Assembly (NCBI GenBank): GCA_048882385.1
Contig: JBHLRQ010000101.1
Coordinates: 1 to 10,914, forward strand
From: Candidatus Thorarchaeota archaeon
Lineage (GTDB): Archaea > Asgardarchaeota > Thorarchaeia > Thorarchaeales > Thorarchaeaceae
Length of the DNA stretch: 10,914 bases
Direction: 5' to 3'
Below the pieces are notes generated by a model. The model saw only the letters and a program-made list of their open reading frames with translations. It did no database searches and was not told the DNA's origin. Positions 1 through 10,914 of the stretch are shown here, piece after piece. Positions within the stretch are counted from its first letter, which is position 1, and each line of letters starts with the position of its first letter. The position numbers were made by a program, and so were the translations under genes.

Positions 1-945
1 ATCGACCATTGCTCCGTGAGCTGGTCGATCGACGAAGGTATCAATACTTGGCACGAGACAAAGAACCTGACCGTGCAATGGTGCCTGATCGCCGAGGCGC
101 TTGATCGCCCTTTTAACAGCGATCCGCACGGCTACGGCGCGAGCTGGGGCGGCGAGGACTGCTCCTACCACCACAATCTCTTCGCGCACTGTGCCGGACG
201 TAATCCCAGCATCGCCGGACAGGAGCGCGACCGCACGATCAACATGGACCACCGCTGCTCGGTCATCTACAACTGGAGACATCGCACCTGCGACGGCAAA
301 CCCATGCAAGTCAATGTGGTCAACAATTACTACAAGCCGGGCCCCGCCACGAACGCCGGTGTGCGCCGGCGCATCGCCCGCATCGATGACACGCAAAGCG
401 CCTACGGGTATCCGTCGATCTGGTTCATTGAGGGCAATACGGTCGAAGGCGACGCCGATATCTCCGCGGATAACTGGCGGGGAGGGGTCCACTTTAAAGG
501 CGACGCTTCCGAAGCCGAGAACCGTCGGCGCACGCCGTTTCCGGTTAGGCCCGTGCCCACGCAATCGGCCGCTGAGGCATACGTCTTGGTCCTGCGTCAC
601 GTAGGGGCCAATCGGCCGCGCCGCGATTCTCATGACACACGCATTGTGCGCGAGGTTGAGACCGGCACCGTAACGTTCGGAAACGGGATCATCGACACGC
701 CCAGGCAGGTGGGCGCCTGGCCGGAACTGACATCGGTCGCCGCACCACCGGATGGCGACGGCGACGGCATGCCCGATGCCTGGGAGACAGCGCACCACCT
801 CAATCCGCATAACACAGCCGACGGCGCATGGGACTCGGACAACGACGGATACACCAACATCGAGGAGTTTTTGAACCAAACCAATCCGCGCGAACGCGTC
901 GACTATCGGAACCTGGCCAACAATCCGGATCTCAGCCGCCCATGA
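1..945 (+). CDS. Pectate lyase, polysaccharide lyase family 1 (5'-partial), with C-terminal Asp-rich Ca-binding repeats
   Basis: The frame is open from base 1 (ATC GAC CAT TGC TCC GTG AGC TGG TCG ATC GAC GAA = IDHCSVSWSIDE, the PL1 'iDH..sW..DE' motif), so the GTG at 16 is internal. It also has the SYHHNLFAH..GRNP motif (RxP), VNVVNNYYKPGP, and a C-terminal DGDGDGMPDAWE...DSDNDGYTNIEEFLN tail typical of this PL1 group. Stop TGA at 943-945. Confidence 0.9.
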   Translation: MDHCSVSWSIDEGINTWHETKNLTVQWCLIAEALDRPFNSDPHGYGASWGGEDCSYHHNLFAHCAGRNPSIAGQERDRTINMDHRCSVIYNWRHRTCDGKPMQVNVVNNYYKPGPATNAGVRRRIARIDDTQSAYGYPSIWFIEGNTVEGDADISADNWRGGVHFKGDASEAENRRRTPFPVRPVPTQSAAEAYVLVLRHVGANRPRRDSHDTRIVREVETGTVTFGNGIIDTPRQVGAWPELTSVAAPPDGDGDGMPDAWETAHHLNPHNTADGAWDSDNDGYTNIEEFLNQTNPRERVDYRNLANNPDLSRP

Positions 946-1088
946 TATGATTCTGACGTGCGATGTAAGAACTCATGTGTGCGCAAGGCGTGTGACTTCA
1001 GGGAGTTGATGCATAGACTTGTCGTGGAATTCGGCGGCTGACCCCCGAAGAGGAGGATCTCATCTCCAATCGAACAGCTGGAGGCAAT

Positions 1089-2801
1089 GTGAAGCTAAAC
1101 GTCGCGCCATTCGAGCTCGTCCCGCTTTTTAACACGTGTTCATTCTACTTCAAGAGCCCCAAGCGAGATGGCCTGACCGTGGCCTACCGCAAAAAGGATG
1201 GTCCGTGGCTGAGAGCTTATGCGCCCGTGTACGTGAAAGAAGACGGCATGTACCGAGGCAGTATCATTGATCTGGACGAAGACACGCCGTATGAGTTAAG
1301 AATCACCGCTGCGAACGGGGAGGTGCTGACTCGGCAGATGTTTCGAACCTGGAGCAGTCAGGTGCCTATCGGTAAGACCATCAGCCTGGACGAAACGACG
1401 TTCACCGGTGGGCTCATTGTCCGAGAATCCGGTTCTCCTCAGGGCTGGATCAAGATCACTGCCAAAGAGGGATTTGTATTACAAAACGATCGTGAGGGGC
1501 CGCTCATTGAACTATACGAAGCCAAGTATGTGATGCTTGAAGGGCTGACCCTGCGAGGTGGCTTACAGGAAGCCATCAGCATAAGGAGATGTGGGCACGT
1601 ACGGATCGTGAACTGCGACATCGCAGGCTGGGGCCGAATCGGAACGCAGCGTTTCGACCGAGACGGCAACTACTACACCGAAACCGGCAGTGCGATCAAC
1701 TGGGACAGCGCGATCCTCGTCAGCAAGAGCATCGGCACTGTGGTGGAGCGATGCTACATCCACGATCCGGTAAGCACGGCGAATTCGTGGTACTACTCCC
1801 ATCCGGCCGGTCCCCAAGCCGTCGGCATGGACAAATCTCGATCGACCGTATTGCGCTATAACGACTTTATCGGCAGCGACGAGCACCGCTGGAATGACGC
1901 GGTGGAGGGCGCGGGGAACTTTCACATCGACGGTGGCTTCAATCGGGATGGCGATATCTACGGCAATATGATGTGCTTCGCCAATGACGATGCGCTCGAG
2001 ATCGACGGGGGCCAGACAAACGTCCGAGTCTTCCTCAACAAATTCGAAGGTTACCTCTGTGGAGTAAGCATTCAGGGTTGTATGTCAGGTCCGTCCTACG
2101 TGTTTCGGAACCTGCTGGTGAACATGGGCGATGAACGAGGACTGGCCGGACAGACCATCAAGACCTCGTCCCATGCGAATGGTCCCGGTGCTGTATCGTT
2201 TATCTTCAACAACACGTGTTATGGCAAATCGCGTGACCTGAATCTTCGCCACAACCTTCGCATCGTGGCAAAGAACAACGTCTTCGCCGGCCGAAGTGCC
2301 ATATCCGGACGCGCCAGAAGCCCACAATCGGATTGCGATTACAACCTGCTATCCACAGGACAACCGGGCGACGAGGCGCATGGGATCCTCAGCGAGCTTG
2401 ACTTCGTCGACGCCCATGCCGGCCTGTTCGCGCTGCGTCGGACCTCGGCCGCCGTGGGCCATGGGATTGTCGTCGACAGCTTTGCTCTGGACACTGAGGG
2501 CCGGCCCGACATGGGAGCTATTCCCTTCGGATCGGACCTGGTCCTGCCTGTCCGCCCAATCCCAGTCGTCCTCGATCGCTACCAGATGGTGTTTTCCGCA
2601 TCGGATGTCAAATCGGCTCGAACCGGGACCATCTCGGCAACAGTCGGGAGCCAAGCCTCCTCGACCCGCTTTCGAATAGCCAGGAACGATGCTTTTGATT
2701 GGTTCAACGTTACTCCAGAAGCCGGCGTGCTCAGACCCGGCCAGACAGTGACATTCTCCGTGACACTCCGCCCTGAGAAGATGGCCACTAGGGCGCTTTA
2801 G
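1089..2801 (+). CDS. Right-handed parallel beta-helix protein (pectin-lyase-like fold), N-terminal portion of the interrupted gene; FN3-like N-domain and start of an Ig/BACON-like domain
   Basis: FN3-like segment YRGSIIDLDEDTPYELRIT. Beta-helix repeats VMLEGLTLRGG, VRIVNCDIAGW, TVVERCYIHD, DIYGNMMCFANDDALEIDGG and FIFNNT. Typical beta-helix tail GRPDMGAIPFG. BACON/Ig-like DWFNVTPEAGVLRPGQTVTFSVT. GGAGG at 1080-1084 lies only 4 nt before the GTG. No signal peptide, and the start is uncertain. Confidence 0.75.
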   Translation: MKLNVAPFELVPLFNTCSFYFKSPKRDGLTVAYRKKDGPWLRAYAPVYVKEDGMYRGSIIDLDEDTPYELRITAANGEVLTRQMFRTWSSQVPIGKTISLDETTFTGGLIVRESGSPQGWIKITAKEGFVLQNDREGPLIELYEAKYVMLEGLTLRGGLQEAISIRRCGHVRIVNCDIAGWGRIGTQRFDRDGNYYTETGSAINWDSAILVSKSIGTVVERCYIHDPVSTANSWYYSHPAGPQAVGMDKSRSTVLRYNDFIGSDEHRWNDAVEGAGNFHIDGGFNRDGDIYGNMMCFANDDALEIDGGQTNVRVFLNKFEGYLCGVSIQGCMSGPSYVFRNLLVNMGDERGLAGQTIKTSSHANGPGAVSFIFNNTCYGKSRDLNLRHNLRIVAKNNVFAGRSAISGRARSPQSDCDYNLLSTGQPGDEAHGILSELDFVDAHAGLFALRRTSAAVGHGIVVDSFALDTEGRPDMGAIPFGSDLVLPVRPIPVVLDRYQMVFSASDVKSARTGTISATVGSQASSTRFRIARNDAFDWFNVTPEAGVLRPGQTVTFSVTLRPEKMATRAL

Positions 2802-2846
2802 CGGGGAGCCTTCCTCATCAGACTGCAAAATAGTTACTCCAGGCCG

Positions 2847-3344
2847 GTGATGGTCTATGCGACCAGTGGTGTCGTTCCCAAGATCAAACCCACGGATAGA
2901 GATGCTTGGGTGACATACATCGAGGCAGAAGAAGCCAGCAATCAAAGAGCTTACGAGATCGTCACCGACCCCGACGCCTCACAAGGGAGATGCCTTCTAC
3001 TGAGGGGTCCTTCCGGAAAGAACCCTGCGGAATACCGGTTCAGTGTCCCGAAGACCGGCAAGTATTTTCTTCTTCTTCGCGTCAAGTCAGATGAGCCGAC
3101 CAGCTACCATGATTCTCTTTACTTTGGGATAGATGACGGCGTGTTCGACAGGGCGCAGTTACGAACCGCCGCATCGTGGGGCTGGTCCCTGGCCGCCCAC
3201 AACAGCAAGATGTCGTTGATTTGTCTCCAGGCTTTCGAACTTGCCGCCGGCGATCATATCGTGAAGCTTGCCCCGAGGGAACCTGTACATGTCGATTTGG
3301 TCGCCGTCACCGACAATCCGGGATTGTTCGACTGTGACCGTTGA
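2847..3344 (+). CDS. C-terminal portion of the interrupted gene: galactose-binding-like / CBM-like beta-sandwich
   Basis: YIEAEE start motif, AEYRFSVPKTGKYFLLLRV, HDSLYFGIDDG and FELAAGDHIVKLAPRE..VDLVAVT resemble CBM6/CBM35-like jelly-roll modules. Same frame as 1089-2801. Confidence 0.6.
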   Translation: MMVYATSGVVPKIKPTDRDAWVTYIEAEEASNQRAYEIVTDPDASQGRCLLLRGPSGKNPAEYRFSVPKTGKYFLLLRVKSDEPTSYHDSLYFGIDDGVFDRAQLRTAASWGWSLAAHNSKMSLICLQAFELAAGDHIVKLAPREPVHVDLVAVTDNPGLFDCDR

Positions 3345-3359
3345 AACGGGGAGACAGTG

Positions 3360-3463
3360 ATGGATAAAAGCATTCCATTGAATCGCAGGCAGTTGCTGCC
3401 TACCCCATTCTGATGTATGAAGAACCCATGGATGCAACTAGCTTCGATTGCCGCATTGACTGA
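3360..3463 (+). pseudogene. Remnant of a deleted Tat-exported protein gene (N-terminal stub plus possible out-of-frame C-terminal stub)
   Basis: RBS GGGGAG at 3348-3353, ATG at 3360, translation MDKSIPLNRRQLLPTPF* (TGA 3411-3413) with a twin-arginine motif NRRQLL but no hydrophobic h-region. In another frame, 3401-3463 reads YPILMYEEPMDATSFDCRID*, ending 2 nt before the RBS of the next gene. Confidence 0.5.
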
Positions 3464-3464
3464 C

Positions 3465-3472
3465 GGAAGGAG
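3465..3472 (+). promoter_or_regulatory. Shine-Dalgarno site for the 1079-aa gene
   Basis: GGAAGGAG, 10 nt upstream of ATG 3483. Confidence 0.6.
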
Positions 3473-3482
3473 TCTCTGAAGC

Positions 3483-6400
3483 ATGACGCGATCAGCAATT
3501 CGATACGATCATCAGAGGAAACATGTGGCCCAAATGCTGGCGTTATTACTTTTGGCAGCCTCGGGCTCGAGCGTTATGGCACGCAATGGCACTGACAAAG
3601 CCGCATTTGAGTGGCACCGGTCGAATCCCGAGGACCAGGGAATGGACGGCGCGAGGCTGGAAGATATGAGAGAGTCTCTGGCTGACCACCATACGACAGG
3701 ACTGCTCGTTATTCGAAACGACAGGATCGTATGTGAGTGGTACAAGGACGGACACAGTGCAGACAAGCCTCACTACACGGCATCGCTGGCCAAGGCAGTG
3801 GTGGGTGGCGTGTCGCTGGCAGTTGCAATAAGCGATGGTCTTATTTCGCTGAATGATCCGGCCGTTAAGTTCGTACCCCAATGGGAGGATGATCCGCGCA
3901 AGTCGAAGATCCGCGTTCGTCATCTCGGCTCGCACACTTCCGGCATCGAGGACGCAGAGGCGGACAATCTGTCGCACGGTAACCTCACCGGCTGGAAAGG
4001 ACTCTTTTGGAAGCGACTCGATCCGCCCCGTGATCCATTCACTCTCTCTCGTGATGCAGCACCCGTGCTTTTCGACCCGGGCGAGAGAATGCAGTATAGT
4101 AACCCCGGCATCGCCATGCTGACTTACTGTGTCACGGCTGCTTTGCGAGACATACCACCCAAGGACATTCGCACGCTGCTGCGCGATCGTGTGATGCGGC
4201 CTATCGGTGTGCCGGGTGCAGAGTGGTCTGTCGGTTACGGCAAGACCTACACCGTCGAGGGGTTGCCGCTTGTCGCCTCATGGGGTGGTGGCGGCTATAC
4301 GGCTCGGGCGGCGGCGCGTGTGGGGCGGCTCATGCTCCGCCACGGAAATTGGGAAGGCCGGCAACTCATTGGCCCGGAGGCAGTGAAGCTCGTGACCTCC
4401 GATGCAGGCACACCGGGCAATGTTGGCATGGGCTGGTGGAGCAACAACGATGGCTCGTATCCCGAGTTGCCGAAGGATGCATTCTGGGGGTCTGGGGCTG
4501 GCCATCAGATCCTCCTGGTTGTTCCCAGTCTGAACCTTATTGGTGTACGTAACGGCGAAGTCCTAGATAGAGTCGGTGCTGAGCCCGATGCGTATCATCG
4601 CCCGTTTCGTCAGTATCTCTTCGCGCCGTTGATGGCCGCGGTGAGGCAAACAGACTCACCTGCTGAATTGGCCCGGAATGACGTTCGCGATCACGTTGTG
4701 CCTCATACACGGGTGTCGATTCAGCAGGCCCAGTGGTCTTTGAATGGCGAAGTGACCTATCCTGGCGCAGAGGCCGAAGGACTCTTGATGGACGTGCGAA
4801 TGGTCAACAGCGTTTTTGAGGACAGCAATCGTCCTGACTTCGACCCTGATTCAAACACGGAGAAGTTTATCGCCCGCATCCCTGAGTATGCCGCTCATGG
4901 TGTTCGCGCCTTCACGGTGAATTTGCAGGGGGGATTCCTGGGATACGAAGGTGCCGTCAACTCCGCGTTTAACCCTGATGGTTCATTGCGGAAGGGTTAC
5001 CTGCAGCGGGTAAGGCGGGTGATCGAGGCGTGCGATCGCAATGGCGTAGTCGTCATTCTTGGCTGCTATTACCAGCGACAAGACCAGATTCTGCAGGACA
5101 GCCAGGCGGTGCGAACCGGCGTCGTAAACGCCGTCCGGTGGATCAAGGAATCGGGCTTCTCCAATGTCGTGCTGGAAATCGCCAACGAATTCAACCATTC
5201 CGGTTTTGATCATGCCATCCTCCGCAAACCTGAGGGGCAGGTCGAGTTGATTCGCCTGGCCAAACAGACTTCTCCTGAACTACTGGTCTCGACGAGTGGA
5301 CTGGGCGATGGCAGGTTGCCGGACAATGTGGCCCAGGCCAGTGATTTCCTCCTGATCCATTTCAATCGCACTGGATTGGACGATATTCCCAAGAGGATTC
5401 AGGACTTACGGAAGTACAACAAGCCGATCGTCTGCAACGAGGACGATAAACACGGCACGGAAGCGGCCAAGGCGGCTCGGTTGAGCGTCGAGCAGGGCGC
5501 CTCGTGGGGATTCATGCACAACGAGATCAACCAATATGCCCCCTTTCAGTTCCAGGGAATTGAAGATGATCTCATCGTGTATGAAATGCTGCAAACGCTG
5601 ACAATACCGAGGGAGGCGACTGTGTACTTTCCGCCCCCGGAATCGGGAGGTGGATGGCGCCGGCTCAATGATCCCGACGACGTTCGACGACTTGGTGGCA
5701 TGGACCCGGTGAAACTGGGCGAATTGAAACAGTGGCTCCTTGAGAGCGACAAGAGGAACTTCGCCGCTGTTGTTATTCGCAACGGCTACATCGTGTTGGA
5801 GGTCGAGCGCGGTAACAGCAGCAAGACTGATGCACGCCGGGTGGCATCGGTGTCCAAGGCTATTTGTGCAACCGTGCTTGCCATCGCCTCTGAGCGCAGC
5901 CAGCGAGGCGAAACGCCAAGGCGGATGTCGTTTGATGATCCAGCGTTTGATTTCATTCCTTGGGCTCAGCCTCTGAGTGACCCGCGCAAGGCCAAGATCA
6001 CGGTCAGACAATTGCTCAACCACACCTCTGGCATTTGCCCTGAGGCCACCGGTGCGCGAAACGACGGCACGTGGCAGTACATCCTCGGCCACAGTGGTGA
6101 TGAACGAACGGCAAAGCTGGCCTTCGATCCAGGCACGGCCTGTGGTTACTCCACCCACGCTCTGGCTCATGCGGCGCTTGTCTGCGAGAATGTTACGGGT
6201 AAGCCCTACGACGAATTCGCTGTTGAAGCGCTGTTCAAACCGATAGGATGCGAACACTGGTGGTTTCAATACTATGACGGTGGCAAAGAAATCGGCAGGC
6301 ATCCGTCACACGGAATGGGGATACCAGCTCGTGATCTGGCGCGCATTGCCTATTGCATGTTGCGAAACGGCAGGTGGAACGGCCAGCAAGTCATTCCGGA

Positions 6401-6722
6401 GTGGTTTGTTGTACAGACGGGAAGACGGAGCCACGACGTGACGACGCGGGAGATGCGTTTCCAGATTCCAGCCCAGACGCTCTCTCTCGGCTGGGAGTTA
6501 CCGGCCAAGCTGACCGGCGAACATGGAACGCCCAGCGGTAGCGGCATCCCCGCTGATGCCCGCTACAAGCCTGGTTCGGGCGGCCAGTTGATCGCGTTCG
6601 TTCCCAGTCTCGACTTGGTGGTGACCCGTCAGACCGGCACTACTGGAAACTGGCAATATGCAGAATACCTGCGCCGAGCCTGTGCGGCGGTTATGCCAGA
6701 ATCAAAGAGAGACAAGAGATGA
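3483..6722 (+). CDS. Secreted three-domain protein: beta-lactamase-fold serine hydrolase + putative clan GH-A-like (beta/alpha)8 glycoside hydrolase + second beta-lactamase-fold serine hydrolase
   Basis: Sec-type signal (LALLLLAASGSSVMA). Domain 1: SxxK = SLAK (3783-3794), HLGSHTSG, YSN (4095-4103), WGSGAGHQ. Domain 2 (~4700-5600): RVIEACDRNGVVVILG, LEIANEF (NE at 5184-5189), FLLIHFN, KPIVCNED (E at 5439-5441). Domain 3: SVSK (5847-5858), QLLNHTSG, YST (6147-6155), KPGSGGQLIAFVPSLDLVV. Confidence 0.88.
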   Translation: MTRSAIRYDHQRKHVAQMLALLLLAASGSSVMARNGTDKAAFEWHRSNPEDQGMDGARLEDMRESLADHHTTGLLVIRNDRIVCEWYKDGHSADKPHYTASLAKAVVGGVSLAVAISDGLISLNDPAVKFVPQWEDDPRKSKIRVRHLGSHTSGIEDAEADNLSHGNLTGWKGLFWKRLDPPRDPFTLSRDAAPVLFDPGERMQYSNPGIAMLTYCVTAALRDIPPKDIRTLLRDRVMRPIGVPGAEWSVGYGKTYTVEGLPLVASWGGGGYTARAAARVGRLMLRHGNWEGRQLIGPEAVKLVTSDAGTPGNVGMGWWSNNDGSYPELPKDAFWGSGAGHQILLVVPSLNLIGVRNGEVLDRVGAEPDAYHRPFRQYLFAPLMAAVRQTDSPAELARNDVRDHVVPHTRVSIQQAQWSLNGEVTYPGAEAEGLLMDVRMVNSVFEDSNRPDFDPDSNTEKFIARIPEYAAHGVRAFTVNLQGGFLGYEGAVNSAFNPDGSLRKGYLQRVRRVIEACDRNGVVVILGCYYQRQDQILQDSQAVRTGVVNAVRWIKESGFSNVVLEIANEFNHSGFDHAILRKPEGQVELIRLAKQTSPELLVSTSGLGDGRLPDNVAQASDFLLIHFNRTGLDDIPKRIQDLRKYNKPIVCNEDDKHGTEAAKAARLSVEQGASWGFMHNEINQYAPFQFQGIEDDLIVYEMLQTLTIPREATVYFPPPESGGGWRRLNDPDDVRRLGGMDPVKLGELKQWLLESDKRNFAAVVIRNGYIVLEVERGNSSKTDARRVASVSKAICATVLAIASERSQRGETPRRMSFDDPAFDFIPWAQPLSDPRKAKITVRQLLNHTSGICPEATGARNDGTWQYILGHSGDERTAKLAFDPGTACGYSTHALAHAALVCENVTGKPYDEFAVEALFKPIGCEHWWFQYYDGGKEIGRHPSHGMGIPARDLARIAYCMLRNGRWNGQQVIPEWFVVQTGRRSHDVTTREMRFQIPAQTLSLGWELPAKLTGEHGTPSGSGIPADARYKPGSGGQLIAFVPSLDLVVTRQTGTTGNWQYAEYLRRACAAVMPESKRDKR

Positions 6723-7051
6723 AGGATTTCGCTGTGAACAGCTTGATCAGTCGTCGCCGTCTCCTGTGCAATTTAGTGCTAGCCGGTTCTCTGGCAGTTT
6801 CTTCACCATCACTCTGGGCGCAAGCGGACAAGGCTGTAGGCGAGGGGGCGCCGTCTGCCTGCTCCTCAATCACGGTAGCGGTGGTGCAGCAAGCTCGCGA
6901 ACCAGAACTCGAAGCGAATCGTGACAAGATCGTGCGTTTCGTTAGCCAAGCAAAGATGCGGGGATGCCGCTTAGTGATCTTTCCAGAGGATGCCCTCGGA
7001 AGGCAGACTGACAGGTGTCCCCGTAATAAGATTATTAATCCTCCTCAATGA
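6719..7051 (+). pseudogene. Truncated carbon-nitrogen hydrolase (nitrilase superfamily) with Tat-like signal peptide
   Basis: ATGA overlap with the upstream stop. SRRRLL plus h-region plus AQA cleavage site. Then ITVAVVQ...LEANRDKIVRFVSQAKMRGCRLVIFPEDAL, the canonical nitrilase N-terminus with catalytic Glu (6986-6988). Similarity stops at ~7000 and the catalytic Lys and Cys are missing. The tail runs into the convergent gene. Confidence 0.8.
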
Positions 7052-8645
7052 TGATTATGCTCTTCTTGATCTGGGCATTCGGTGAAACGCGCGGTTTCTT
7101 GCCACTGGCTGTCGTAAGCGCCCGGATCTTCACTTTCTGGCACAGTGTGTACGGGAAGGGACGATCCTCGGGTTTGATATCTTTGCCGCCGTCCGGATCG
7201 CTGAACAGGTACATGCCCTGGTAGTCGTCCGGGTGATTCGAGTCGTCAACGTACAGTCCGTCAATCGTTACCTCCCGCGGCATGAAGCACGGGTATCCGA
7301 AATCGTGCATACCGTCATTGCGTGTGTAGATCATCTGTGGCCAGCGCCGACTTCCGCCGGCCGGGATCCAGCGACAATTGCGGATGACAACATCGCCTTC
7401 CCACGTACTGCCATAATCGCTGCGGAAATTGATCAGCGAGCCACCGTACAGGGTGGAATCCTCGACGGTCAGCAGGCCGCGGCCGATGGCGTTCAGTCCC
7501 ATATAGCCCAGGGTACAGCCGCGGATCACATAGGTACCGGAGACCCCCATATGCGTGTCCATGCGCGAGAGCGTACAGTTCTCCAGCAGGATGTTTTTGC
7601 AGAAGTTCGTGCCGATCACACCCCAGCGCGTACGATCGTTAATGTGGTTCATCCGACAGTTGATCATGCGGAAATTAACCACATTGTTCGCGCTATAGTC
7701 GTACGATCCCATGCTGACCGGCTTGCCCGCCGATCCGATGGTTGAGTAGGTCTTGTGTCCGGTAGCGAAGCAGCTGCGCAGGGTGATGTTGGCACAGTTG
7801 CTGATGCTGATGAAGCCGGAGTAGGGGTGCCCGACCGCGGTTTCCCCAACGACGTAGTGGGTCAGGCCGTCCACTTCCGTATTGGAACGGGATATCCTGA
7901 TGTTGCGGGCCCAGTAGTTGTAGCCGACCTCCTGCTTCATCCGATTTGCAAACGTGGTGAAGACACCGCCCCGCAGGATGAGCGGCTTTTCGTCCATGGG
8001 ACGAGCCTCAACCCGACTGACGTTGTCGTAATCCCAGTCAATAGCTCCCTCCACAGACCCGTCCCGACGAAGGATGAAGCAGTCGTGCTGGGAGACCCCC
8101 GAGTTCTGGTTGAGGCCGCGCCGGATGTAACGCTTTATCTTGCGGTTCGTCACCACGACGTGACAATCGTGCTTGGGCCGCACATCCAATTGCTTGTGGT
8201 CGCGTGTGAGTCGGTCAATCGACAGTGTTTCACGCTCAAGCAGCGAACGTACTTCAAATAGTGATTTTCTGTGGTTCTCAACCTGCGTATCGTCAATGGT
8301 GAAACGTGACGTGTTCCAGTCGGTGTCCGTGGCGATGAGCACGGTCAGCGCCTTGGCGCCGAGATGGTACGTCGCGTCAGGCTTTGTCTTGACGCTTAGT
8401 CCATGCGCGTTGGCATACTCATGCGCTTTGCAAATCGCAGGCAGATCATCGCTTACACCGTCGCCAACCGCACCGAAGGCTTCATAAGTGACAATGTCGT
8501 CAGAAATCGCGGTACTGGCCAACTGCGGCGCCAACACGAGCGCAGCCCGGCCGTACCCATTGAATCCTTCGGCTTTGATCGTTAGCAAGGACTGAAAGAC
8601 AGCCATTATCGACACGAACAGAATCGTATTTCGCTTGGAACTCAT
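7035..8645 (-). CDS. Secreted right-handed beta-helix protein (Pectate_lyase_3 / GH28-like N-terminal motif), putative polysaccharide-active enzyme of unknown family
   Basis: Signal-peptide-like N-terminus. VTYEAFGAVGDGVSDDLPAI is the FGAxGDGxxDD cap motif. Beta-helix coils ISISNCANITLRSC, FCKNILLENCTLSRMDTHMG, LLTVEDST and VVIRNCRW. Tandem TAA TAA stops (7037-7032). GGTGAG just upstream of the ATG. Confidence 0.82.
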   Translation of the reverse strand: MSSKRNTILFVSIMAVFQSLLTIKAEGFNGYGRAALVLAPQLASTAISDDIVTYEAFGAVGDGVSDDLPAICKAHEYANAHGLSVKTKPDATYHLGAKALTVLIATDTDWNTSRFTIDDTQVENHRKSLFEVRSLLERETLSIDRLTRDHKQLDVRPKHDCHVVVTNRKIKRYIRRGLNQNSGVSQHDCFILRRDGSVEGAIDWDYDNVSRVEARPMDEKPLILRGGVFTTFANRMKQEVGYNYWARNIRISRSNTEVDGLTHYVVGETAVGHPYSGFISISNCANITLRSCFATGHKTYSTIGSAGKPVSMGSYDYSANNVVNFRMINCRMNHINDRTRWGVIGTNFCKNILLENCTLSRMDTHMGVSGTYVIRGCTLGYMGLNAIGRGLLTVEDSTLYGGSLINFRSDYGSTWEGDVVIRNCRWIPAGGSRRWPQMIYTRNDGMHDFGYPCFMPREVTIDGLYVDDSNHPDDYQGMYLFSDPDGGKDIKPEDRPFPYTLCQKVKIRALTTASGKKPRVSPNAQIKKSIIIIEED

Positions 8646-8675
8646 AGACTCACCACAACTGATAGGATATGTGAG

Positions 8676-8685
8676 ATTATAGCCA
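8676..8685 (-). promoter_or_regulatory. Putative -10 element for the 8645 gene
   Basis: Minus strand TGGC-TATAAT, a perfect -10 hexamer at 8681-8676, ~30 nt upstream of the ATG. No good -35 at canonical spacing. Confidence 0.4.
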
Positions 8686-8740
8686 TAGCGTGATTCTACC
8701 CCTGGTATCAGGGCGGATCAAGACTGAGTCATCGTGCACC

Positions 8741-8828
8741 TGTCAACCGGGAGTAGGACCATTGTGAAGCGGTCAACCTCGACGTCAGAACTCTTTGCAG
8801 AGAAAGCACGCCTGGGACCGGGTTGACA
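8741..8828. repeat. 88-bp segment bounded by 8-bp perfect inverted repeats TGTCAACC...GGTTGACA; possible MITE or IS-end remnant
   Basis: TGTCAACC at 8741-8748 and GGTTGACA at 8821-8828 (10 of 11 pair if extended), with an internal copy of GTCAACC at 8772-8778. TG...CA termini. No clear target-site duplication. Confidence 0.35.
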
Positions 8829-8884
8829 ACGTGAGTGACCCCCTCCCTTGGCGGCAATCTCGGCCATGAGGTCTGAAAAACGAG

Positions 8885-8914
8885 TTCACGGGGGATCGAA
8901 TTCCTGGCTATACT
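8885..8914 (+). promoter_or_regulatory. Putative sigma70-type promoter for the phosphatase / DUF4832 genes
   Basis: TTCACG (8885-8890), 18-nt spacer, TATACT (8909-8914), ~40 nt upstream of ATG 8957. Confidence 0.4.
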
Positions 8915-8956
8915 GAGTGCAATGGAATCTCGTGTTATGACAAGCAACTGGGTTTC

Positions 8957-9319
8957 ATGATGAAGCCAAAAAGAATGCACTACTTGTTTATCTGCTATGC
9001 GAACCTGGACCGAAGTCCGACTGCAGAAGCAGTTTGCGCTAGGATCGCCCAAGAGAACAACCTGGACATAGTCGCCAGCTCAGCCGGTGTATCACGAGGA
9101 GCCAATCGAGCAGTTACGAAGGAAATGGCTGATCTGGCTGACAAGATCTTCGTCATGGAGCCAAGTATGGTGACTGAGATGGTGGAGGAATACAGCCAGA
9201 ACCCTGCGAAGATTGTTTGCCTGGACATCCTTGACGTCTATGCTCAGAACGACCCGGTACTTGTCCAGCGACTGCAAGCTAAGCTGTACGAGCATTTGGC
9301 TCGTGAGGAAGTGATCTGA
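8957..9319 (+). CDS. Low-molecular-weight protein-tyrosine-phosphatase-like protein (LMWPc/ArsC fold, short type)
   Basis: N-terminal P-loop LFIC-YANLD-RSPTAE (CX5R-S; Cys 8993, Arg 9011), ASSAGV, ADLADKIFVME, and C-terminal CLDIxDVY...DPVLV. Confidence 0.9.
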   Translation: MMKPKRMHYLFICYANLDRSPTAEAVCARIAQENNLDIVASSAGVSRGANRAVTKEMADLADKIFVMEPSMVTEMVEEYSQNPAKIVCLDILDVYAQNDPVLVQRLQAKLYEHLAREEVI

Positions 9320-9336
9320 CAGAACTGATTGAGAGA

Positions 9337-10800
9337 TTGGATCTACCTATGTTCTTTCGGGATGTTCGACTTTTATGTGTCATCGTCTTATTGGGGTGTT
9401 GTGCATGCGCGCCAGGGGCCGACAGCAATCAGATTGTGATCCGGCCCAGGGAGTATCAAGGAGCGTTAAGGAATTCACTGAAAGGATTCCGACCTGATGT
9501 GAATCCGCGAGCTTTCACGCACGAATACGCCACCCTCGGCCGATGCTATCTAAGGTGGAATGAGCTTGAAAACAGTGAAAGCGACGGCGTCGACAGGATT
9601 CTGCGTGTCTGCAATGAGCGATGGAAGGACGTTGACAAGTACAACGTCAAAGTCATCCCACGCGTCTACCTCGACTGGGACGAGAAGGAAGGGAACGAAT
9701 ACTGGCCTGCTGATATGCAGGTCGGTGACTACAGCAGTGAGCAGTTCAAACGACGTGTCCGGCGTCTGATTGCGCGGCTGGGCGCGTGCTGGGACAATGA
9801 CCCTCGCGTCGCCTGGGTACAACTGGGCATCATTGGCTATTGGGGAGAACACCATCACCCGTCGCCAGACGCGGATATGCAGAAACTGCTCGGTGACGTG
9901 TTCGCTAAGGCGTTCAGAAACAAAAAATTGACTGTCCGGCATCCATGGGAGTTCACCGACTACCAGTTCGGCGTTTACTGGGATTCCTGGGCGCACATCC
10001 AGCAGGTGGGAAACCACGGCGAGGGAATTGCGAAACTCAATGTTGAGACAGGGCGTTGGAAGGTGTGCCCGATGGATGGCGAGTGCGCCTACAACTGGGG
10101 ACGCTACCAACAACAGCCTGGCGACAACCCCAACGACACACTCCGCGACCCAGTCCATCGAGAGTGGCTGATTGATACGATTCGCTGGCTGCACGGAAAC
10201 GACCTGGGATGGGTGGCGAACTATGATCCTTCTGACCCACTGGTTCGGGCAGGAGCTGAGGAAGTGCAGAAGGCCTTTGGCTATCGATTCGTGATCTCCG
10301 AAGTGCGATATGATGCGGTCGTACAGCCGGGCGGAACCTTCAATGTGACATTCCGGGCGCGCAACGCGGGCTCTGCCCCCTTCTACTACAACTGGCCAGT
10401 CGAGGTCACCCTGCTCGATTCTGAATCGCGAGAAGCGGCATGGAAGGAGACGTTCGACGGTGTTGATATTCGCACATGGTTGCCTGGAGACCAGTGGAAC
10501 AAAGAGAACAAACAGTACGATATCCTACCTGAGACATACGAGGTTTCGGGAGACTTCTCACTTCCACAAGATCTGCCAAAAGGCGAGTACATCCTGGCAT
10601 TGGCCATCCTGGATCCTGCAGGAATGTTACCATCAGTACGATTTGCGATCGAAAACTACTTCACTGGAGGCAGGCATCCAATTGGCATGATGGGCGTAGA
10701 CAAATCCCCGTCTGAAAGCGAGTTGGATCCGGCTATGTTCGACGACCCAGCAGGAGACAAGACCCTGGAATACGAATTGAAACCGGGCACGAAGGACTGA
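9337..10800 (+). CDS. DUF4832/DUF4874-like exported putative glycoside hydrolase (clan GH-A-like TIM barrel plus C-terminal beta-sandwich)
   Basis: Hydrophobic signal with Cys residues (LLCVIVLLGCCACA; possible lipoprotein), LRNxLKGF, KVIPRVYLDW, WDNDPRVAWVQLGIIGYWGEHH, PMDGECAY, FGYRFVI, NAGSAPFYYNWPVEV, DIRTWLPG and LPKGEYILALAILDP. The start may be ATG 9349 rather than TTG 9337. Confidence 0.85.
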   Translation: MDLPMFFRDVRLLCVIVLLGCCACAPGADSNQIVIRPREYQGALRNSLKGFRPDVNPRAFTHEYATLGRCYLRWNELENSESDGVDRILRVCNERWKDVDKYNVKVIPRVYLDWDEKEGNEYWPADMQVGDYSSEQFKRRVRRLIARLGACWDNDPRVAWVQLGIIGYWGEHHHPSPDADMQKLLGDVFAKAFRNKKLTVRHPWEFTDYQFGVYWDSWAHIQQVGNHGEGIAKLNVETGRWKVCPMDGECAYNWGRYQQQPGDNPNDTLRDPVHREWLIDTIRWLHGNDLGWVANYDPSDPLVRAGAEEVQKAFGYRFVISEVRYDAVVQPGGTFNVTFRARNAGSAPFYYNWPVEVTLLDSESREAAWKETFDGVDIRTWLPGDQWNKENKQYDILPETYEVSGDFSLPQDLPKGEYILALAILDPAGMLPSVRFAIENYFTGGRHPIGMMGVDKSPSESELDPAMFDDPAGDKTLEYELKPGTKD

Positions 10801-10914
10801 TAGGATTTCAGTAATCCACCCGGGCGGTTGGTGCAGATGATGTGACCCCGGTTTCCTTCATGGTACGGTTCGATGATCCGGTTGATGCCCTGTTATACAG
10901 CCTTACAGCAGTAG
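10800..10914 (-). mobile_element. Degenerate C-terminal remnant of an integrase-core-domain (rve-type DDE) transposase
   Basis: The minus strand from 10913 reads YCCKAV*QGINRIIEPYHEGNRGHIICTNRPGGLLKSY. This matches the recalled C-terminal pattern YYN..RPHQG....IEP......G.I.C.ERLGGLLKSY of integrase-core transposases common in Planctomycetota. In-frame TAA at 10895-10893. Confidence 0.65.

Follow-up and report, generated by a model that had tools for sequence, protein, structure and literature searches.

A predicted exported protein on a Thorarchaeota contig combines two beta-lactamase-fold serine hydrolase modules with a clan GH-A-like barrel

Proteins of the beta-lactamase fold include hydrolases that do not act on beta-lactams. 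NylB (EII, the 6-aminohexanoate-dimer hydrolase) and the family VIII enzymes, for instance EstB (1ci8), 4ivi, EstG (7uda) and Lsa45 (8dc1), share the fold together with its SxxK motif and Tyr, and hydrolyse esters or amides. EstG is reported to be an esterase acting on a cyclic glucan, which provides a precedent for a beta-lactamase-fold enzyme working on a glycan. The S12 peptidases, or 'CubicO group peptidases' (COG1680) as an automatic JGI label has them, belong to the same Pfam family and have the same catalytic triad positions. Multimodular carbohydrate-active enzymes such as the GH10-CE1 and GH43-CE proteins join a glycoside hydrolase (GH) that cleaves the backbone to a carbohydrate esterase (CE) that removes decorations, with linkers between the modules of a single exported chain. 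To our knowledge, the established carbohydrate esterase families have alpha/beta-hydrolase, SGNH or metal-dependent folds and not the beta-lactamase fold. Here we describe a gene on a 10,914-nucleotide stretch of DNA (positions 1 to 10,914, forward strand, of contig JBHLRQ010000101.1 from the Candidatus Thorarchaeota assembly GCA_048882385.1; hereafter the window) whose open reading frame (ORF) at 3483..6722 (+) encodes a predicted exported protein of 1079 amino acids (aa). It is best described as a multimodular glycan degrader with two beta-lactamase-fold modules of the esterase type and an unclassified barrel of the clan GH-A type.

The ORF opens with ATG and runs to its stop codon with zero internal stops, as an initial annotation made from the letters alone had read it, and the motifs that this annotation singled out lie where it placed them (SLAK at 101, SVSK at 789, EIANE at 565-569 and PIVCNE at 648-653). 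A Shine-Dalgarno-like GGAAGGAG (3465..3472, +) can be read from the sequence 10 nt 5' of the ATG. From its N-terminus, the protein comprises a probable Sec signal peptide (aa 1-33; 3483..3581, +), an N-terminal beta-lactamase-fold serine hydrolase (NBL; aa 44-390; 3612..4652, +), a flexible linker (aa 389-407; 4647..4703, +), a GH-A-like (beta/alpha)8 barrel (BAR; aa 409-709; 4707..5609, +) and a C-terminal beta-lactamase-fold serine hydrolase (CBL; aa 715-1073; 5625..6701, +). The GC content is 0.55-0.59 throughout the ORF, including the NBL/BAR junction. The signal peptide is predicted, along with its cleavage site, from the pattern of hydropathy and charge: after the basic residues R3, R7, R12 and K13 comes a hydrophobic core, aa 15-26, where the Kyte-Doolittle mean over 11 residues rises to 2.45, and then SGSSVMA. 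The AlphaFold2 (AF2) model has a helix at aa 4-27 and disorder at aa 27-39, and two-domain and stand-alone homologues carry variable leaders of about 28-40 residues ahead of the start of the conserved domain. The protein thus looks like one that leaves the cytoplasm through a Sec signal peptide, and the earlier picture of three separate catalytic-looking modules in one predicted exported chain stands.

The two hydrolase modules are recognised by their matches to PF00144 and by conservation, and NBL also by its match to NylB. PF00144 is found twice (cut-off 27 bits), at aa 66-355 (90.3 bits, E 1.7e-25) and at aa 761-1055 (92.4 bits, E 4e-26), so the two SxxK beta-lactamase-fold domains first proposed from the letters are far beyond chance. 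The NBL motifs are S101-x-x-K104 (SLAK), H151-T-S-G, Y205-S-N207 and a third box, G336-S-G338; the CBL motifs, brought into register with those of NBL by hhalign, are S789-x-x-K792 (SVSK), H847-T-S-G, Y889-S-T891 and a third box, K1029-P-G1031. In the AF2 model S101 begins the helix at aa 102-117 and S789 that at aa 790-807. S101, K104, Y205 and N207 are each present in 119 of 119 NBL homologues, as are S789, K792 and Y889 in 119 of 119 CBL homologues, with Thr in place of Asn at position 891 of the second box in 117 of the 119. The third box of NBL, G-S-G, has neither Lys nor His, and that of CBL in the hhalign register is K-P-G; these boxes are the putative equivalents of the KTG of AmpC. 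NBL and CBL are clearly homologous to each other (BLAST identity 25-28%; hhalign probability 99.8%, E 1.1e-28, 33% identity). Each also belongs to a large family of mostly stand-alone proteins. For NBL, 1389 matches at E<=1e-3 were found among 7998 scored candidates, the 120 listed being 59-86% identical and mostly about 390-400 aa long; for CBL there were 1654 matches among 7644 candidates, the 120 listed being 75-87% identical and mostly about 390 aa long. The stand-alone CBL proteins have a variable leader of about 28 residues and then the invariant start YFPPPES-GGWR, with which CBL also begins here.

CBL is very conserved for an exported hydrolase, with 163 of 363 positions at least 97% conserved in the 119 best whole-protein matches. 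Its stand-alone forms occur in metagenome-assembled genomes (MAGs) labelled Planctomycetota, Verrucomicrobiota, Acidobacteriota, Haliangiales and Flavobacterium. Either strong constraint or recent horizontal spread could lie behind this conservation.

NylB and the family VIII enzymes provide the best sequence and structure matches of the hydrolase modules. By sequence, the nearest solved protein to NBL is NylB (E 8.6e-11) and the nearest to CBL is an uncharacterised Bacteroides protein, 5tgf (E 1.8e-11), with a NylB-like protein, an S12 peptidase and Lsa45 among the further PDB matches. Foldseek with the full-length model ranks NylB first (E 4e-14), followed by Lsa45 ('penicillin-binding protein with esterase activity'), 5tgf, a macrolactin acyltransferase, PIB-1, family VIII carboxylesterases, EstG and EstB; behind the esterases come class C beta-lactamases and, in 50th place, the R61 DD-peptidase. 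Because NylB and the esterases lead this ranking, class C and R61 stand lower in it and the NCBIfam class C model scores far below its cut-off, we consider that NBL and CBL are most likely acyl-enzyme hydrolases of the esterase/amidase type and not resistance enzymes, a substrate class predicted from sequence and modelled structure. The same ranking favours the NylB/esterase type over the peptidase type suggested by the 'CubicO' label. The two modules nevertheless differ from NylB and family VIII in several respects: identity is 15-21%, they are fused to glycosidase-type domains, and they form two tight families whose homologues are 60-87% identical. With NCBIfam, all three modules of the protein score far below threshold.

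The central module was identified by its AF2 model, by Foldseek and by conservation. Built with an alignment of 29 members (A1), the model of BAR is confident (mean predicted local distance difference test, pLDDT, 93.4; predicted template modelling score, pTM, 0.89) and consists of an N-terminal hairpin and then a strand/helix unit repeated eight times. N568-E569 come directly after strand 4 (aa 562-567), H626 is the last residue of strand 6 and E653 that of strand 7 (aa 649-653), and W675 lies on strand 8. The middle domain therefore models as the GH-A-like barrel that the initial annotation had anticipated, with one Glu after strand 4 and another closing strand 7, and Glu569 (codon 5187..5189, +) and Glu653 (codon 5439..5441, +) are, from model and conservation, the putative acid/base and nucleophile. 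In 82 representatives covering at least 80% of the domain, E569, H626 and R439 are kept in 82, N568 in 81 and E653 in 80, and W675 in 74, with Tyr in 7. All 50 listed Foldseek matches in the PDB are of the clan GH-A type (GH5, GH2 and GH140): the best is the GH5 beta-mannanase 3wfl (E 1.6e-10), ManDH5 is also among the leading matches (template modelling score, TM, 0.57-0.62 for the mannanases), and after these come GH2 beta-glucuronidases, a GH140 apiosidase and endoglucanases of GH5_4. With GH5 and clan GH-A, as represented by the mannanases 3wfl, 3ziz and ManDH5 (9gpg), BAR shares the (beta/alpha)8 fold, the Asn-Glu after strand 4, the His of strand 6, the Glu at the end of strand 7 and the Trp of strand 8. 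It differs from them in its own N-terminal beta-hairpin and in the invariant N-V-R, Q-G-G and Y-Q-R-Q motifs, and no specificity is transferable from them.

At the sequence level this relationship is faint. A PDB sequence search with BAR alone returned only chance matches (leucine-rich repeat proteins, E 0.29), and a search with the 29-member profile returned GH5 matches at E 0.1 or worse, which are suggestive and non-significant; one of these, at E 0.14, puts EIANE opposite the acid/base motif of the GH5 enzyme CelA (4xzb), H opposite its HxY and NE opposite its nucleophile motif. Since none of the sequence matches to the PDB is significant, the assignment rests on the fold. Weak PF00150 matches occur in 19 of the 29 A1 members (best E 1.8e-6), and some relatives exceed the PF00150 cut-off (P0124, 33 bits; P0165, 30.8 bits). 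By analogy we classify BAR as a clan GH-A-type barrel, for which fold and residue placement are observed and glycosidase activity is predicted. The family is large: HMMER, run exhaustively over 1.84 billion representatives of clusters drawn at 50% identity, found 1222 homologues with E no greater than 1e-3, of which 750 reach 1e-10 and 271 reach 1e-30.

The full-length AF2 model (alignment A2, 54 sequences) has a mean pLDDT of 83.6 and a pTM of 0.55, with the individual domains confident. The linker between NBL and BAR falls below pLDDT 50 and differs in length in a homologue with the same architecture (P0006), and blocks across the BAR-CBL junction (aa 700-729) have mean pLDDT values of 75-93. 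This contrast hints, as a weak inference from the model, at an NBL loosely tethered to a more intimate BAR-CBL pair, an arrangement that fits BAR-CBL being the dominant natural unit. The modules are probably tethered, with no single composite active site, because the linker consists of about 20 disordered residues and because the modules are found in other orders, with inserts and as separate neighbouring genes.

To place this protein among its relatives we searched with the whole protein (1874 matches at E<=1e-3 among 8000 scored candidates) and classified the 120 best matches with the three query modules. BAR-CBL accounts for 102 of them, typically proteins of about 705 aa that are 70-85% identical to aa 409-1073 of the query. 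The complete NBL-BAR-CBL sandwich is found in five clusters: the query's own (P0002), P0006, two with Sde182 inserted (P0003 and P0004) and one with DUF4185 inserted (P0005). The remainder are CBL-BAR (5: P0044, P0045, P0051, P0062 and P0121), NBL-CBL in the order NBL-(DUF4185)-CBL (3: P0047, P0073 and P0088), CBL-NBL (1: P0040), NBL-BAR (1) and proteins with a more distant second beta-lactamase-fold domain (3). The occurrence of reversed and barrel-less orders indicates that module order is unconstrained. The initial annotation knew of no characterised example of the sandwich, and none turned up in Pfam, NCBIfam, solved structures or the literature searched here; it is not a one-off, however, given its presence in 5 of the best 120 clusters and a BAR-CBL core that forms a very large family.

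A scan of GTDB, one genome per species, yielded 167 confirmed stretches. The 78 loci retained from these lie without exception in MAGs, mostly labelled Planctomycetota or Verrucomicrobiota. Simple ORF calling left the target gene unresolved in 10 of the 78 loci, and these 10 were excluded from the architecture counts. BAR and CBL share one ORF in 33 of the 78 loci, two of which (L002 and L003) also carry a separate NBL gene beside or near it; 30 have CBL without BAR, 2 have BAR and CBL in adjacent ORFs, 2 have BAR only (at contig ends or broken), and 1 (L035) encodes a 1515-aa NBL-BAR-Sde182-CBL protein. In L012:5248-7044, L070:9971-12071 and L071:9908-11729 the BAR and CBL parts lie in separate adjacent or overlapping ORFs, which may be frameshifts of MAG assembly or genuinely split genes.

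The closest relatives of the individual modules are simpler proteins. NBL is 82% identical to the stand-alone 406-aa P0272, while the two-domain 705-aa P0007 shares 81% identity with BAR and 89% with CBL; against the sandwich P0006 the corresponding values are 65%, 58% and 76%. That the modules in the window are nearer to simpler proteins than to P0006 suggests that the NBL-BAR-CBL sandwich may have arisen more than once, as far as sequence comparison can tell. The fusion is genuine and represents one configuration of a recurrent, widespread and unstudied three-module set.

The domains found with these modules in other proteins point to glycans. Pfam partners in the 120 best whole-protein matches are PF07632 with PF21027 (15), PF06439 (5), PF13810 (4), PF00150 (2) and PF19815 (1). 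Among the 120 listed NBL proteins, 10 carry GH29 (PF01120) and 15 carry DUF4185 (PF13810), and 11 of the 120 listed CBL proteins carry PF06439. Across 50 diverse representatives, BAR is accompanied by beta-lactamase-fold domains on either side, NPCBM, GH115_C, BACON, BNR, DUF6298, Exo_endo_phos, M23 with PKD, and many Ig-like domains. BAR is also fused to a domain of the endonuclease/exonuclease/phosphatase family (PF03372) in P0125 and P0129 and to a purple-acid-phosphatase-like metallophosphoesterase in P0147; from these fusions, some substrates may carry phosphodiester-linked groups.

Gene neighbourhoods were compared by clustering 430 neighbour ORFs from the 78 loci. Sulfatases recur in 7 loci, DUF6298/apiosidase-like (GH140-like) proteins in two clusters of 6 and 4 loci, and GFO/IDH/MocA oxidoreductases in 5 loci, and DUF4185 proteins also recur. 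L002 has GH29-like, GH141-like, RGL11-like and CBM60 neighbours, and L031 has an M14 peptidase and a SASA esterase. In L035:163-23988 a long same-strand row surrounds the 1515-aa protein and includes a PL22-like oligogalacturonate lyase, a beta-lactamase-fold protein of another kind that is joined to an M14 carboxypeptidase domain, two GH140-like proteins, pyrroloquinoline quinone (PQQ) beta-propeller protein(s), three sulfatases and a tetratricopeptide repeat (TPR)/multihaem cytochrome-like protein. The theme suggested by these contexts is the breakdown of complex, often sulfated or fucosylated glycans, from which no single substrate emerges.

With slightly better than even confidence, we read the protein as an exported multi-catalytic polysaccharide-degrading enzyme made of three independently folding modules that are also found separately. 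This reading builds on the folds, on the placement and conservation of the catalytic residues, on the kinship of the hydrolase modules to esterases and NylB, and on the recurrent fusion or adjacency of the modules with glycan-active ones. The Sec signal peptide (about aa 1-33) would export the protein, and BAR, by analogy with clan GH-A, would be a retaining enzyme that cleaves a glycosidic bond, with Glu569 serving as acid/base and Glu653 as nucleophile. NBL (Ser101/Lys104/Tyr205) and CBL (Ser789/Lys792/Tyr889), being of the NylB/family VIII esterase type, would act by acyl-enzyme hydrolysis and would strip ester-linked (or amide-linked) substituents off the decorated glycan that BAR cleaves, making way for the glycosidase. 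Such removal of ester or amide groups, already suggested by the initial annotation, is a role that we infer. Besides EstG, precedent comes from the FmtA-type D-alanyl esterases that act on teichoic acids. The tethered modules may cooperate on one polymer, and the substrate is probably a complex decorated heteropolysaccharide, often sulfated or fucose-containing.

Several observations weigh against this reading. BAR superposes on GH-A structures with a TM of only 0.48-0.62, an identity of 9-17% and a root-mean-square deviation of 5-8 A, which places it far from every solved enzyme; it may be a hydrolase or a transglycosidase. Its PF00150 match is below the cut-off of 23.5 bits, at 16.1 bits in the whole protein and 18.7 bits in the isolated domain. 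Residue 437, in the N-V-R motif of strand 1, is Asp here (codon GAC, 4791..4793, +) where 82 of 82 representatives, and 34 of 34 A2 residues at the column, have Asn; BAR may accordingly be altered or weakened in this protein. One A-to-G change would account for the Asp, which may stem from a sequencing error, reflect a shift of specificity peculiar to this lineage or mark a weakened enzyme. CBL keeps the Lys of its third box (K-P-G), like peptidases and penicillin-binding proteins (PBPs), S12 D-peptidases are among the sequence matches, and M23 and M14 peptidase domains occasionally accompany the modules. The neighbourhood is weakly conserved: no neighbour family occurs in more than 7 of the 78 loci, so that context yields a theme (glycan, sulfatase) and no pathway. 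Finally, we found no activity, substrate or expression data for any member; no characterised member was matched in Pfam, NCBIfam or solved structures, and a literature search, to which CAZy and subscription journals were external, returned neither a characterised member of the NBL, CBL or BAR families nor a fusion of a beta-lactamase fold with a glycoside hydrolase.

The peptidase-like features suggest another function, in which NBL and CBL are S12-type D-stereospecific or DD-peptidases that trim peptide stems and BAR cleaves the attached glycan, be it peptidoglycan, proteoglycan or another peptide-bearing polymer of microbial necromass. CBL matches the S12 peptidase 3wwx (E 3.8e-9) and the alkaline D-peptidase 4y7p (E 2.8e-6) by sequence, as well as the DD-carboxypeptidase 9s7k and the Lip3 DL-peptidase 9sn1; its K-P-G stands at the KTG position, and NCBIfam AmpH scores 51 bits, which is far under the cut-off of 266. 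An M23 peptidase is fused to BAR in P0127 and listed with CBL in P0117, and L031 and L035 have genes for M14 carboxypeptidases close to the family member. The top structural relatives, however, are NylB and esterases and not DD-peptidases (R61 being only 50th), the commonest partners are glycan-related (GH29, DUF4185, DUF1080, Sde182 and GH140-like) together with sulfatases, and a peptidoglycan-binding domain is present in none of the architectures examined. We also know of no clan GH-A family that is a muramidase, and consider a degrader of glycopeptides or cell walls unlikely. It is less likely still that one or both serine modules are acyltransferases or transesterases, or glycan-docking binding modules, instead of hydrolases of decorations. 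Foldseek does list the macrolactin acyltransferase 6kjh (E 3.3e-12) and EstCE1, 'a hydrolase with promiscuous acyltransferase activity', and among the NCBIfam models NBL scores highest with 3-succinylated cholic acid synthase (74 bits, where the cut-off is 800). Against acyl transfer, the protein is apparently exported and activated acyl donors would not be expected outside the cytoplasm; against a purely binding role, the Ser/Lys/Tyr set is fully kept in 119 of 119 homologues of each module, which argues for catalysis.

Two further explanations concern the gene itself and its PF00144 label, and we regard both as very improbable. An assembly or frameshift artefact could have joined a stand-alone NBL gene to a BAR-CBL gene, since the modules are closest to just such simpler proteins (P0272 and P0007) and L002 and L003 encode NBL apart from BAR-CBL. 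The same in-frame fusion is nonetheless present in P0006 (1046 aa, 65% identity across 96% of the query, all three domains in frame) and, with inserts, in L035, P0003, P0004 and P0005; the identical 1079-aa P0002 is a cluster representative that stands for 9 sequences on 2 contigs, composition is even over the junction, and the linker replaces the barrel's usual signal peptide, as a true fusion predicts. On this evidence the fusion, for which the initial annotation had wanted an artefact to be considered, is genuine. Least probable of all is a beta-lactam resistance enzyme or a PBP of cell-wall synthesis, for which PF00144 membership speaks. NCBIfam bla_class_C scores 25.2 bits against 415 and blaDHA 15.7 against 800, the fusion partners of the modules are a glycosidase barrel and glycan-related domains, and NylB and esterases are closest in structure, in agreement with the earlier opinion that this is unlikely to be a resistance gene.

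Returning to the reading as a polysaccharide-degrading enzyme, we tentatively put forward a more far-reaching version of it, which we regard as possible and considerably less secure than the reading itself. NBL and CBL would found two beta-lactamase-fold families of carbohydrate esterases (or glycan amidases) and BAR a new clan GH-A family, and Planctomycetota and Verrucomicrobiota would shuffle all three, in any order, fused or neighbouring, against one acylated, probably sulfated or fucosylated environmental polysaccharide that has no known degradation pathway. If so, a single decoration of uniform chemistry would explain why CBL stays 75-89% identical from one architecture or phylum to another. 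If the modules do process glycans, thousands of metagenomic genes labelled 'serine hydrolase', 'beta-lactamase family protein' or 'CubicO group peptidase', mostly in Planctomycetota and Verrucomicrobiota, would be glycan-processing modules, and the beta-lactamase fold would join the carbohydrate-active enzyme repertoire along with a GH-A-type glycosidase family that is so far uncharacterised. Polysaccharide turnover by these bacteria could be annotated better, and such genes would not be miscounted as resistance determinants in resistome surveys. The fusion pattern offers an experimental handle, as three co-travelling modules should share one substrate.

Within the window, the gene belongs to a row of five closely spaced + strand ORFs (1-945, 1089-2801, 2847-3344, 3483-6722 and 6719-7051). 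The first (1-945, +, 5' end open) codes for the C-terminal portion of a protein that bears bacterial thrombospondin type 3 repeats (PF18884, 29.4 bits). The initial annotation had placed a PL1 (polysaccharide lyase family 1) lyase and two beta-helix proteins beside the gene. We found no PL1 lyase among the window neighbours with Pfam, NCBIfam, the PDB or the Atlas, so a pectin substrate is not indicated. Matches to beta-helix proteins among these neighbours are weak at best. The 570-aa protein encoded upstream (1089..2801, +) has Pfam matches to Beta_helix and BACON_2, both below cut-off, and among the neighbours PF13229 scores 18.5 bits, with a cut-off of 25.9. The other candidate is a convergent 536-aa protein (7035..8645, -), a possible right-handed beta-helix with a tail-spike-like match (E 2.1e-5) and no Pfam match, for which the names of its Atlas clusters (beta-helix / pectate lyase superfamily) are a lead only. 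A homologue of the 570-aa protein lies directly 5' of a BAR-Sde182-CBL gene in L045.

Downstream, a 110-aa ORF (6719..7051, +) overlaps the stop of the three-module gene (ATGA), and its 3' end overlaps the convergent gene that ends at 7035. Its match to the CN_hydrolase profile (24.4 bits) covers only positions 1-42 out of 256, and the ORF is probably what is left of a truncated gene of the nitrilase/amidase superfamily. Further along, a 120-aa ORF (8957-9319, +) resembles the N-terminus of low-molecular-weight phosphotyrosine phosphatases or ArsC (PF01451, 30.7 bits) and directly precedes a gene at 9337..10800 (+) for a 487-aa DUF4874/DUF4832 protein, which matches PF16116 with 63.3 bits and PF16173, below cut-off, with 23 bits.

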